Shown: positions 30,313 through 32,802 of the stretch, in pieces
How the letters are laid out: each line of letters starts with the position of its first letter
How positions within the stretch are numbered: the stretch's first letter is position 1
Sequence record: SRR31156797_2215
Length of the DNA stretch: 64,000 bases
Reading direction: 5' to 3' (one strand)
The notes under the pieces: generated by a model
What the model saw: the letters and a program-made list of their open reading frames with translations, nothing else
Told to the model about the DNA's origin: nothing
Database searches by the model: none
Translations under genes and position numbers: made by a program

Positions 30313-30646
30313 AATACTCCTCTTTCTTTTTTTCAAAGAAACTATCAATTTGATTGCATTCTTCTATCTATAAGCCTATCTTCCCATATAAATAACATAA
30401 AAAACAGTCAATTTTTTCATACAAAGCGGAAAAAAATAGTATTGCTGTCAATCATTCACTCTATTCTCTAGTGATGCATATTCGATCTTTCTATTCCACT
30501 CTTTTTACATTCTGGTGTAAATCCCCTTGACTACGCGGATTGATTCCCTTATCATCAAGGGTAACCATATTCAATCAGAATTTTCAGAATATTCCGTTAT
30601 ATTTTTCATAACGGCGATTCATTGGAAGACAGGGAGGATGAAGAGA

Positions 30647-31429
30647 GTGAATGAAGCAAAACAAGTCCCATGGACAGGAGAACCAAACCAACGAGCGATC
30701 AACTATTTGAATGAAGAAGGCAAAGTGATCGTCTGCCCAACCAAAGTCGGCTATATCATTGCCGTCTCTGATAAAAAAGGGCTGGAACGCAAGTTTTCAG
30801 CAAAGAATCGCAAGCGTAACAAACCAGGCGTCGTTCTTTGCAGCTCATTGGAGCAGCTACATGAATTAGCCGAATTAAATGCGGAAACCGCCGCCGTTTA
30901 TGAAACGTGTTGGAACAATGACGTGTTATTCGGTGCGATTTTGCCTTGGAAAGAATCAGGAAAAGCCTATATCCCAAAAGATGGTTCAGAAGAATTGATG
31001 ACGGACGTTCGGGGAACCAGCTGTTTCGTGATCAAATTCGGTGTCCCTGGTGAGCAGATCTCAAAAGAACTTTGGGATCAAAAAAAGAAATTGCTTTTCG
31101 CCAGCTCAGCGAACCCTTCAGGCAAAGGAAACCGCGGACTTGTTGAAGGGATCGGCGAACAAATCGCGCAAGAAGCCGATCTAATCATTGAAGGCAACGA
31201 CTATGTTGCATCGATCCAACCAGACAAAACGCTGGAAACCCGCTACGAACAAGGAGTCATGGTTTCTTTCGTTGATAAAGACGGTAACTTGATTCCAGAG
31301 CAAGGAGACCAACGCTCCATCACTCCCGCACCTGTCTTGATCCGTAAAGGACTCGATGTTGAAAAAATCCAAATGTACCTTTCTGATCACTTCAACTCAT
31401 GGGACTATCGCCACGGGGAGTATTATTAA
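30647..31429 (+). CDS. YrdC/Sua5 (TsaC)-like threonylcarbamoyl-AMP synthase paralog
   Basis: IVCPTKVGY (canonical PTETVYG), KNRKRNKP (KxR...KP), SSANPSG; GTG 9 nt after GGAGG (ATG 30638 also in frame). Confidence 0.8.
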   Translation: MNEAKQVPWTGEPNQRAINYLNEEGKVIVCPTKVGYIIAVSDKKGLERKFSAKNRKRNKPGVVLCSSLEQLHELAELNAETAAVYETCWNNDVLFGAILPWKESGKAYIPKDGSEELMTDVRGTSCFVIKFGVPGEQISKELWDQKKKLLFASSANPSGKGNRGLVEGIGEQIAQEADLIIEGNDYVASIQPDKTLETRYEQGVMVSFVDKDGNLIPEQGDQRSITPAPVLIRKGLDVEKIQMYLSDHFNSWDYRHGEYY

Positions 31430-31536: not shown

Positions 31537-31854
31537 CTATCGTGTTTCTTTCAAAAGCTGAATGATCTGTGCCTGTTGTTTGATGATCGTATCTTGTTGC
31601 TTGATTTTAATCCAGTTTTGGTCGATTTGGATAGCTGCTCCGAGATTTTTGTAACTAAGGTTGGGGATCTCCATGAAATGTATTCGGTGTGCAGATAAGT
31701 CATTAAAGATCTGAACAGACAGTCCCTCACTCAATTCATGAACCTCTTTTTCTACAATATACTGGTTGATCAGGTCTTCTACAGTCAAACGCTTTTTTCG
31801 TTTCTTGCCTTGTGTGCCATTCGAATTTTCAGATTTCTTGTTCGTACCAAACAT
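31537..31854 (-). CDS. Hypothetical protein with basic N-terminus and C-terminal coiled coil
   Basis: 105-aa ORF with strong AAAGGAG RBS. Confidence 0.65.
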   Translation of the reverse strand: MFGTNKKSENSNGTQGKKRKKRLTVEDLINQYIVEKEVHELSEGLSVQIFNDLSAHRIHFMEIPNLSYKNLGAAIQIDQNWIKIKQQDTIIKQQAQIIQLLKETR

Positions 31855-32061
31855 TTTTGTTCTCCTTTCGTTAGGTCATCCTTCCTCCATTTTGTGATTC
31901 CGTGTCTCTTCTTCAGTGACCAAAATAAAATTGAGCGAAACCTACATACGAACATTTTTTCATAAAATAGCATTATAATCTACATTTTGTTGTTTTTAAA
32001 GATAAAAAAGGAGATAAATTACGATCAGGTTTTCTCTGTCATAGAATTCCAACTCTATTTC

Positions 32062-32070
32062 TGCTATAAT
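32062..32070 (+). promoter_or_regulatory. Extended -10 promoter driving the RNHCP leader
   Basis: TGCTATAAT perfect TGn-TATAAT. Confidence 0.7.
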
Positions 32071-32098
32071 CCCCTCATAAACACATAGGAGGGACTCT

Positions 32099-32128
32099 AT
32101 GAAAAAGCATTCCTCAATTGCTTTCTAG
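32099..32128 (+). CDS. Putative leader peptide 1 (MKKHSSIAF)
   Basis: ATG...TAG directly after a strong AGGAGG SD, just downstream of the promoter. Confidence 0.55.
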   Translation: MKKHSSIAF

Positions 32129-32140
32129 GGGACGACGCCA

Positions 32141-32221
32141 ATGACAGTGACTTTGGACTACACTTACTGCTGGGTTGTGGGCTGCCGCAACACAGTGCTT
32201 AGCACAAAACGAAAAAACTAA
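32141..32221 (+). CDS. Putative leader peptide 2 (MTVTLDYTYCWVVGCRNTVLSTKRKN)
   Basis: AGGGGA SD overlaps the uORF1 stop, 8 nt before ATG. Confidence 0.4.
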   Translation: MTVTLDYTYCWVVGCRNTVLSTKRKN

Positions 32222-32368
32222 GCGTGGTACGGATTGCGAAATCGCATGAAGCTGGAAGCAGAAGTAATCGTTACGGACGGTGAATGTGTCCCTAGCCAAA
32301 GAAGCCTGATGAAGAACGAACGGAACCCTTTTCTCTCAAAAGAAATCATTCTTTTGGAGGAAAGCAAA

Positions 32369-32686
32369 ATGAGAAAAGGTGAAAATACGACCTTTGTTTG
32401 TAAAAACTGCAGTACGCCTGTGGCACCCTTGACCAATGGTTCTTACCGCAACCATTGTCCCCAGTGTCTCTACTCGTTACACGTGGATATTCGCCCAGGT
32501 GATCGTCAAAATACTTGCCATGGCCTGATGCGACCCATCGATTATCGCCAACATTCCAAAAAAGGCTATCAGCTGCTGCATCAATGCACTCGCTGCAAAA
32601 ACCAGCAGTGGAATATCGTGGCACAGGATACGCAACAGCCTGACCATTTTATTGAGTGGTTAGCTCAAACCGCTGCGTATCACTAA
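32369..32686 (+). CDS. RNHCP domain zinc-finger-like protein
   Basis: F.CKNC, RNHCPQCLYSLHVD..PGDR...C.G.M.P, H.CTRC; ATG after GGAGG. Confidence 0.9.
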   Translation: MRKGENTTFVCKNCSTPVAPLTNGSYRNHCPQCLYSLHVDIRPGDRQNTCHGLMRPIDYRQHSKKGYQLLHQCTRCKNQQWNIVAQDTQQPDHFIEWLAQTAAYH

Positions 32687-32694
32687 ACAGCCAA

Positions 32695-32724
32695 AGAAGA
32701 CCATGCTTCAGGCTGGTCTTTTTT
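32695..32724 (+). terminator. Terminator after RNHCP gene
   Basis: aagacca...tggtctt followed by T tract. Confidence 0.7.
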
Positions 32725-32802
32725 GGTAATCAGAACAACGGCCCCCTTATACCACTAACTGCTCATAGACATTGTCGTCATAAGAAGTGCTTACTTTAAC
32801 CT

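Follow-up and report, generated by a model that had tools for sequence, protein, structure and literature searches.

The closest described relatives of the RNA reported here are the autoregulatory leaders of ribosomal-protein genes (L20, S15, S4, S8 and S7/str), in which a structured 5′ leader that resembles ribosomal RNA (rRNA) lies next to an occluded start and controls translation, excess protein binding its own mRNA. According to passages of Eckert and Weinberg (2020, PMC7247131), the ligand of every known ribosomal leader is encoded by a regulated gene, and the described rRNA-mimic leaders rest on few shared nucleotides. A second group comprises the ermC, cat and cmlA attenuators: a short leader open reading frame (ORF) has its own Shine-Dalgarno sequence (SD), pairing hides the downstream start, and a ribosome opens it. 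In RNA phage MS2, translation of the coat gene opens the replicase start through long-range coupling. Here we describe a leader RNA in the 64,000-nucleotide stretch SRR31156797_2215 (the window, whose DNA belongs to the Enterococcus casseliflavus group). The leader precedes a gene for the orphan domain RNHCP and, as judged from covariation and sequence likeness, reproduces on a small scale the lower half of the 3′ (head) domain of 16S rRNA. On balance we favour the reading that it is an autoregulatory rRNA-mimic leader in the style of the ribosomal-protein genes, serving a 30S-head-binding RNHCP protein and opened by translation of an upstream ORF (uORF). We found no Rfam family and no paper that describes the element: searches of the literature on rRNA mimicry, and passages of PMC11109978 and PMC7247131, gave no description of it, and the only Rfam matches on any leader are those of small-subunit (SSU) rRNA models on two relatives.

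The leader is ~290 nt long from its extended −10 promoter element, and roughly 200 nt of it (32126-32330), between the first uORF (uORF1) and a hairpin that pairs the SD of the RNHCP gene, form a structured RNA; a first-pass annotation of this DNA had taken the same region for a spacer with a second uORF (uORF2). We aligned 16 leaders from four phyla, excluding two (L017 and L022) because of their large insertions; helices were first drawn by eye on the alignment and pairing was then counted over 44 pairs and 699 cells. Standard pairs form in 95.4% of the cells, compared with 28-49% when the 3′ partners are slid by 1-3 columns; 32 of the 44 pairs change on both sides, that is, in a compensatory manner; and none of 500 shuffles reached any of these measures. 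RNAalifold, given no structure, arrives at these helices too (34 of its 49 pairs are compensatory), together with a helix H0 plus two extra pairs that join the conserved 5′ and 3′ blocks of the leader. H0 covaries at its two outer pairs. The mimic and its helices are:

32144-32309, plus strand: core of the mimic of the 16S 3′ domain (covariation, RNAalifold, 16S likeness)
32144-47 with 32306-09, plus strand: helix Hx (covariation)
32151-56 and 32158-60 with 32293-301, plus strand: h28m, helix 28 by position (covariation)
32167-70 with 32258-61, plus strand: h29m (covariation)
32174-80 with 32185-91, plus strand: h30m (covariation)
32198-202 with 32218-22, plus strand: h41m (covariation)
32230 with 32251, and 32235-38 with 32243-46, plus strand: h42m (covariation)
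32267-71 with 32277-81, plus strand: h43m (covariation)

Equivalents of 16S helices were assigned by matching the structure lines of real 16S rRNA and of the Rfam alignment, and we take the numbers 28, 29, 30, 41, 42 and 43 to be those of the standard 16S numbering. Like the 3′ major (head) domain of 16S rRNA (RF00177), the mimic holds equivalents of these six helices linked by near-identical joining strands; unlike 16S rRNA, it lies in an mRNA leader, measures ~200 nt instead of 1.5 kb, has a loop in place of helices 31-40, and keeps only stubs of the long helices, 41-43 among them. Hx, H0 and the most conserved, nearly invariant blocks of the leader (GGGGACGACGCC, AAGCCTG and AACGGAACCC) fall outside the 16S-matching part. 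Judged by eye, the mimic may run on beyond helix 28 to a stub at the place of helix 44. A first mapping, which had equated GGGGACGACGCC with 16S 1184-1195 and CTACAC with 1220-1228, was discarded, as covariation placed the strands of h29 and h30 elsewhere. In the two leaders left out of the alignment, L017 from an Oscillospiraceae metagenome-assembled genome (MAG) and L022 from a bacterium of the Candidate Phyla Radiation (CPR), insertions of well over 100 nt separate the h43-like hairpin from the 3′ block; in L022, moreover, neither a uORF start nor an SD hairpin can be recognised.

Our searches point to a likeness that extends to primary sequence. When 401 genomes of the order were scanned for a 25-nt pattern of the best-conserved block in the leader, with as many as three mismatches allowed, the scan yielded five copies in one genome (G428) and one in another (G372); one pattern match (L074) was confirmed by Rfam as a full 16S rRNA gene, and all six loci were later matched by leader profiles. 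The profile made from enterococcal leaders only, run over 377 kb of DNA that included RNHCP loci and 16S genes, matches, besides the known leaders, real 16S genes at an expectation value (E) of 4e-7, and a broader profile matches the latter at E down to 7e-14. The Rfam model SSU_rRNA_bacteria scores the leader of L016, a Pseudomonadales locus, at 71.7 and 65.9 bits, above its cut-off of 50; the alignment covers model positions 929-1367, from which ~263 nt (helices 31-40) and the greater part of helix 41 are missing, and the same helices are marked in it. The archaeal SSU model scores the leader of L012, a Chloroflexota locus, at 51.5 bits. In the numbering of E. coli rrsH, window positions 32245-32270 align with 16S 1328-1353, and 32278-32292 with 1369-1384. 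A full match to RF00177 above the gathering score, the mark of a bacterial SSU rRNA gene, is absent from the window, and the match in L016 is only partial.

The enterococcal profile detects this RNA in the DNA immediately 5′ of RNHCP genes (E 6.5e-19 to 1.7e-9) in Kribbella, Nonomuraea, Microlunatus, Streptomyces, two Chloroflexota MAGs, two Oscillospiraceae MAGs and one Pseudomonadales MAG; the broader profile adds one CPR bacterium and places the leader at 14 of the 32 RNHCP loci from the homologue set. Eighty metagenome loci were fetched by a short pattern taken from the non-16S block: three have the full leader, with RNHCP right after it in each case, and the other 77, with neither leader nor RNHCP, are chance pattern matches. 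Among 301 Actinomycetes genomes sampled, four (the query's own genome included) carry the leader; of four new Actinomycetes leader loci, three have RNHCP next and the fourth ends at the contig end. Three genomes with a match contain a single leader copy each. Every leader for which the DNA behind it was available has an RNHCP gene there. On the strength of the metagenome, Actinomycetes and copy-number results, the element is rare, occurs in several phyla and is seen only before RNHCP genes. The neighbourhoods of 13 leader-bearing loci share no conserved partner gene; RNA-modification genes are scattered near them (RsmB/F, SpoU, an RlmN-like enzyme, TsaD and NusB), which we do not count as evidence.

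The mimic is set between elements that would control access to the RNHCP start:

32062-32070, plus strand: extended −10 promoter element TGCTATAAT, read in the sequence
32087-32128, plus strand: uORF1 and its SD (AGGAGG at 32087-32092, ATG at 32099, nine codons, TAG at 32126-32128, peptide MKKHSSIAF)
32118-32125, plus strand: 5′ strand of helix P0, made of the last uORF1 codons, pairing with 32360-32367
32126-32130, plus strand: 5′ strand of H0, overlapping the uORF1 stop codon, pairing with 32326-32330
32126-32139, plus strand: 5′ strand of H0 and the nearly invariant GGGGACGACGCC block (alignment, covariation)
32141-32221, plus strand: uORF2 of the first-pass annotation, a chance ORF (start and frame not conserved)
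32319-32330, plus strand: conserved 3′ block AACGGAACCC with the 3′ strand of H0 at 32326-32330, invariant or nearly so in the alignment
32328-32364, plus strand: SD-sequestering hairpin, with an anti-SD arm at 32328-32344 and an SD arm at 32349-32364
32360-32371, plus strand: 3′ strand of P0 (spacer 32360-32367) and RNHCP start codon 32369-32371 (pairing)
32369-32686, plus strand: RNHCP gene, 105 codons plus stop (Pfam PF12647)
32690-32727, plus strand: intrinsic terminator hairpin, then a T run (folding)

The first-pass annotation had read the −10 element, both uORFs, the SD hairpin, the gene and the terminator from the letters, and each of them lies where it was placed. Transcription would start near 32077. 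A promoter consensus scan does not list the plus-strand promoter of the RNHCP gene because its −35 element is weak, and a rule-based scan does not list the terminator because its loop is too long for the rule; folding shows it instead (−23 kcal/mol, z −6.3, none of 200 shuffles equally stable). The AGGAGG of uORF1, 6 nt 5′ of the ATG, is a strong and unstructured SD, and the GGAGG of the RNHCP gene (32356-32360) is paired inside the SD arm of its hairpin, which folds at −16.3 kcal/mol (z −2.75). The z of the whole-leader fold is only −1.8 and, taken alone, uninformative. At E ≤ 1, Rfam matches no family in the leader, and none in the whole window at the gathering score; therefore it is no known riboswitch, T-box or leader, and an impression of a T-box from the word GTGGTAC was dropped.

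Comparison with close relatives indicates tighter constraint on the leader than on the gene it precedes. The RNHCP protein of the window shares 98% identity with its counterpart in E. casseliflavus NBRC 100478 and 96% with the one in E. innesii. Against E. innesii, 5 of 327 positions differ in promoter plus leader, 17 of 318 in the RNHCP coding sequence (10 codons synonymous, 4 not) and 69 of 182 compared positions in the DNA upstream of the promoter; similarity between the two types starts ~20 nt 5′ of the −10 element. Contigs of three other strains show no difference from the window in 32040-32368, and the same strains' contigs (n = 3) show two in the coding sequence (32369-32686) and five in 31959-32029. 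A BLAST search of 134 genomes of the family with the leader gave strong matches (E ≤ 1e-50) in six, three near-identical and three diverged (G101, G087 and G138); the diverged copies are 77-81% identical, and an RNHCP reading frame comes after each of them. Conservation in relatives goes beyond chance for uORF1, for the SD hairpin and for the entire leader.

We took a census of uORF, stop codon and P0 in 20 distinct leaders. An SD-led uORF of 7-15 codons that has a start codon and ends at the fixed stop is present in 15 of them, and in all 20 a stop codon (TAG, TGA or TAA) lies at −1 to +5 nt from the GGGG of H0. The frame is kept and the peptide is not: uORF1 peptides are unrelated between lineages, and the three diverged copies have uORFs of 9-11 codons, each with its own SD and the common TAG end, that encode differing peptides. 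uORF2, which lies across helices Hx, h28m, h29m, h30m and h41m, fares differently. Its ATG reads AAG or ATA or is absent in G101, G087 and G138, and its frame is disrupted in the diverged copies by indels whose lengths are not divisible by three. Because the start codon is unconserved and the frame is broken, we regard uORF2 and its T-K-R-K-N motif as chance features of the sequence. An alignment of orthologous leaders upholds part of what the first-pass annotation had proposed, namely the uORF1 frame and the SD hairpin, fails to uphold uORF2, and brings out a covarying RNA.

The last 24 nt before H0, that is, the 3′ part of the uORF, pair with the start region of RNHCP, from the spacer through the start codon to the first codons. 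In the window, the P0 duplex (32118-32125 with 32360-32367) has −15.6 kcal/mol against a shuffle mean of −7.4, and the G138 leader carries a compensatory change from G-C to A-U in P0. Across the 20 leaders the uORF-to-start duplex ranges from −13 to −32 kcal/mol; 5% or fewer of the shuffles equal it in 13 leaders and 11-16% do so in three, while the sequence of the helix differs in every lineage. Pairing between the uORF RNA and the start region of RNHCP means that a ribosome on the uORF has to open it. The SD hairpin, right after GAACCC, pairs the RNHCP SD in all 11 folded leaders that have a recognisable SD. P0, H0 and the SD hairpin share end bases and therefore form one junction, with the mimic as third arm, so that the RNHCP start region is masked twice; an unconstrained fold of the window leader shows this junction.

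Two variants of this start and uORF arrangement were seen in other lineages. Six actinobacterial leaders (L010, L011, L019, L112, L203 and L204) have no ATG, GTG or TTG between the SD and the conserved N-terminus of the protein; they have an ATC 6-7 nt after the SD, at the place of the start codon of other lineages. Actinobacterial RNHCP may, by this reading of the sequence, initiate at AUC, which, if true, would make it sensitive to initiation fidelity. Of two Chloroflexota MAGs, L015 differs from L012 by 1 nt, which shifts the frame of the L015 uORF: its SD-led frame continues beyond the usual stop into the mimic, where the TGA within the conserved CAGTGA terminates it.

The product of the gene belongs to the RNHCP family (PF12647; 108.3 bits, cut-off 24; E 1.9e-31; residues 7-90) and matches no other Pfam family above cut-off. 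At E ≤ 0.001 its relatives fall into 884 representative clusters, and lengths of 90-135 aa prevail among the 150 best listed; in a separate listing of relatives, most have ~100-110 aa. Invariant residues of the family include four CxxC-type pairs and the RNHCP motif, and an AlphaFold model of the protein (predicted local distance difference test score, pLDDT, 84.5) combines zinc-knuckle strands with a small beta-barrel and a C-terminal helix. We found no biology paper on RNHCP or PF12647. A pointer to its place of action comes from domain fusion: in two loci of the window's own genus (L004 in G007 and L005 in G004), a 447-aa RsgA GTPase carries a C-terminal RNHCP domain, and RsgA-RNHCP fusions occur in two representative proteins elsewhere. 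RsgA is a 30S-assembly GTPase whose C-terminal zinc domain touches the 30S head. A shared-word search for longer RNHCP homologues returned only two proteins, both with RNHCP alone. Two further fusions are of other kinds: in P0201 and P0269, respectively, a GIY-YIG nuclease domain precedes RNHCP, and RNHCP precedes an SRP54-type GTPase fragment.

These observations suggest the following scheme for an autoregulatory leader. The transcript from the extended −10 element would comprise the nine-codon uORF, the ~200-nt mimic of the 16S head and the SD-pairing hairpin. The start region would be closed, with the last uORF codons held in P0, the stop codon abutting H0 and the SD buried in its hairpin; ribosomes that translate the uORF would melt P0 and H0 and so provide a window for RNHCP initiation. 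The RNHCP protein, a zinc ribbon, would normally bind the copied 16S region on the 30S head and, when in excess over this ribosomal target, would bind the mimic, lock the junction and repress its own translation. We infer both the identity of the ligand and the direction of control: that RNHCP itself is the ligand is suggested by the ligand rule for rRNA-like leaders and by the RsgA fusion. Indirect support for its binding to both the rRNA site and the leader comes from the RsgA fusions and the exclusive association of leader and gene. More tentatively, at a level of belief just short of even, we propose that RNHCP is an unrecognised binder of the 30S head or neck, acting in assembly, quality control or silencing, that gauges its surplus on a small six-helix replica of its 16S docking site inside a uORF-operated switch, whose output would be set by free RNHCP and by initiation and termination on the uORF.

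The likeness to ribosomal-protein leaders lies in a covarying, structured 5′ leader RNA that resembles a defined rRNA region, in control of translation through an occluded start, and in the proposed logic of excess protein binding its own mRNA. The RNHCP leader differs from them in three respects: the regulated gene encodes an orphan zinc-ribbon domain and no known ribosomal protein; the mimic spans six helices and ~200 nt, with a relative that scores above the Rfam SSU cut-off; and a conserved uORF is built into the fold. As in MS2, translation of an upstream frame would melt a long-distance helix that masks a downstream start; unlike in MS2, the upstream frame is a uORF of 7-15 codons whose product is not conserved, and what the helix closes off as a loop is a conserved domain of a protein-binding type.

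Several observations weigh against autoregulation by RNHCP on a 16S mimic. Concerning the mimic, 18 of the 32 RNHCP loci have no leader at E ≤ 1, and the Rfam SSU models find no match at E ≤ 1 in the leader of the window itself, whose rRNA likeness therefore rests on profile, pattern and pairwise evidence and on homology to the Rfam-matched leaders; the pairwise scores of leader against 16S are only z 3.5-5.7 above mononucleotide shuffles, and the reversed sequence of one leader scored nearly equal. Concerning the switch, a clear SD-led uORF was not found in five of the 20 leaders (L077, L013, L016, L015 and L022), and the P0 duplex is no better than shuffles in four; opening P0 and H0 alone leaves the SD hidden, so the kinetic scheme is incomplete. 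In three public RNA runs the stretch is present only as contigs of 2.8-19 kb that cross genes of both strands and are therefore uninformative on transcription, start site and level; a run of raw reads gave none that aligned. Concerning the protein, RNHCP is not a known ribosomal protein; its model has no informative neighbour in Foldseek (best E 0.12, to the zinc ribbons of an RNA polymerase I subunit) and no usable one in VIA-align (best Z 3.1); and the RsgA-RNHCP fusion loci L004 and L005 have no leader mimic among the profile matches. The copied 16S region is also where uS7, uS9, uS13 and uS19 classically bind, and the ligand could be a protein of this group.

This last point leads to the main rival of RNHCP autoregulation, which we hold to be unlikely: the mimic would be bound by 30S-head ribosomal proteins (uS7 first, or uS9, uS13 or uS19), and the leader would report the balance of free head protein and 16S rRNA and switch RNHCP as a 30S-assembly helper. 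The copied part, 16S model 929-1367 minus helices 31-40, coincides with what we take to be the minimal binding region of uS7 together with contacts of uS9, uS13 and uS19; its joining strands are nearly identical to those of 16S rRNA, and the RsgA fusion fits an assembly role for RNHCP. Against these points, the most conserved blocks of the leader (GGGGACGACGCC, AAGCCTG and AACGGAACCC) lie outside the 16S-matching part, the RNHCP gene is monocistronic, with no ribosomal-protein gene in the unit, and all known ribosomal-leader ligands, according to passages of PMC7247131, are encoded by a regulated gene.

We consider quite improbable the model of the first-pass annotation, an attenuator of the erm/cat type in which a drug-stalled ribosome on the leader peptide opens the RNHCP start and RNHCP is induced by antibiotics or ribosome stress. 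Part of that model survives: it recognised in the short uORF with its SD and the SD-burying hairpin a translational device before RNHCP, and this device is conserved in relatives. The own SD and fixed stop position of the conserved uORF, and the pairing of its RNA with the start region, which a ribosome held on the uORF would keep open, are what such an attenuator needs, and a leader ORF with an SD and a start-hiding pairing are shared with ermC, cat and cmlA. The arrest peptide is what is missing. The basic T-K-R-K-N motif proposed for drug-induced arrest lies in the unconserved uORF2, and the sole E. innesii change within the transcribed leader turns the arginine codon of its "K-R-K" from CGA to CAA (R to Q); the peptide of uORF1, unlike drug-sensing arrest peptides, varies freely between lineages in sequence and length (7-15 codons). 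Further, the uORF pairs directly with the start region, unlike in the four-segment alternative fold of these attenuators; a large rRNA-like domain is inserted between the two, and an attenuator leaves this ~200-nt covarying RNA without a role. Nothing links the gene to a resistance function, and a drug-sensing arrest on uORF1, though conceivable, gains no positive support; a ribosome-related role for the protein, suggested in the same annotation, is made more plausible by the RsgA-RNHCP fusions and the rRNA mimicry.

The remaining idea, that the 16S-like fold is a riboswitch-like sensor of a 16S-targeting small molecule or enzyme, or a decaying and functionless rRNA gene fragment, has the sequence-level likeness to 16S rRNA and an expression platform built like that of translational riboswitches in its favour but is highly improbable. 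Decay is opposed by the same trimmed architecture, with compensatory changes, that always stands before RNHCP in four phyla; a drug sensor is opposed by the deletion of the region of helices 31-40, which holds the helix 31 and helix 34 sites of tetracycline and spectinomycin, and the gene context indicates no ligand.

If RNHCP autoregulation is true, the rule of rRNA mimicry known from ribosomal-protein genes would extend beyond the known ribosomal set, and an element would be at hand that joins protein feedback to a uORF-driven unmasking step. The orphan RNHCP family would gain a directly testable function, the predicted binding to the lower 30S head. In size and in literalness the mimic far exceeds the described ones that we encountered; it may fold alone like the junction of the 16S head and, as a compact natural RNA, could serve structural work.

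Mapping of the leader also bears on gene annotation. Public gene calls of the casseliflavus type (P0003-P0005) have 146 aa and span the equivalent of window 32246-32686, which means that the called start is an in-frame ATG inside the leader, within a strand of the h42/h29-like part. This start is probably mis-annotated, given the SD-led ATG at 32369 and the relatives of ~100-110 aa, and calls that begin inside the leader can be corrected accordingly. Upstream of the promoter in the window lie a 105-aa ORF without a Pfam match (31537-31854, minus strand) and a gene of the Sua5/YciO/YrdC family (30527-31429, plus strand); downstream, two ABC exporter genes lie on the strand opposite to RNHCP. 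At L043, the diverged locus of G101, the RNHCP frame behind the intact leader has a 14-nt gap relative to its relatives and a longest ORF of 79 aa, and may be a pseudogene or a frameshifted form; the gene upstream of it encodes a radical-SAM/SPASM protein.

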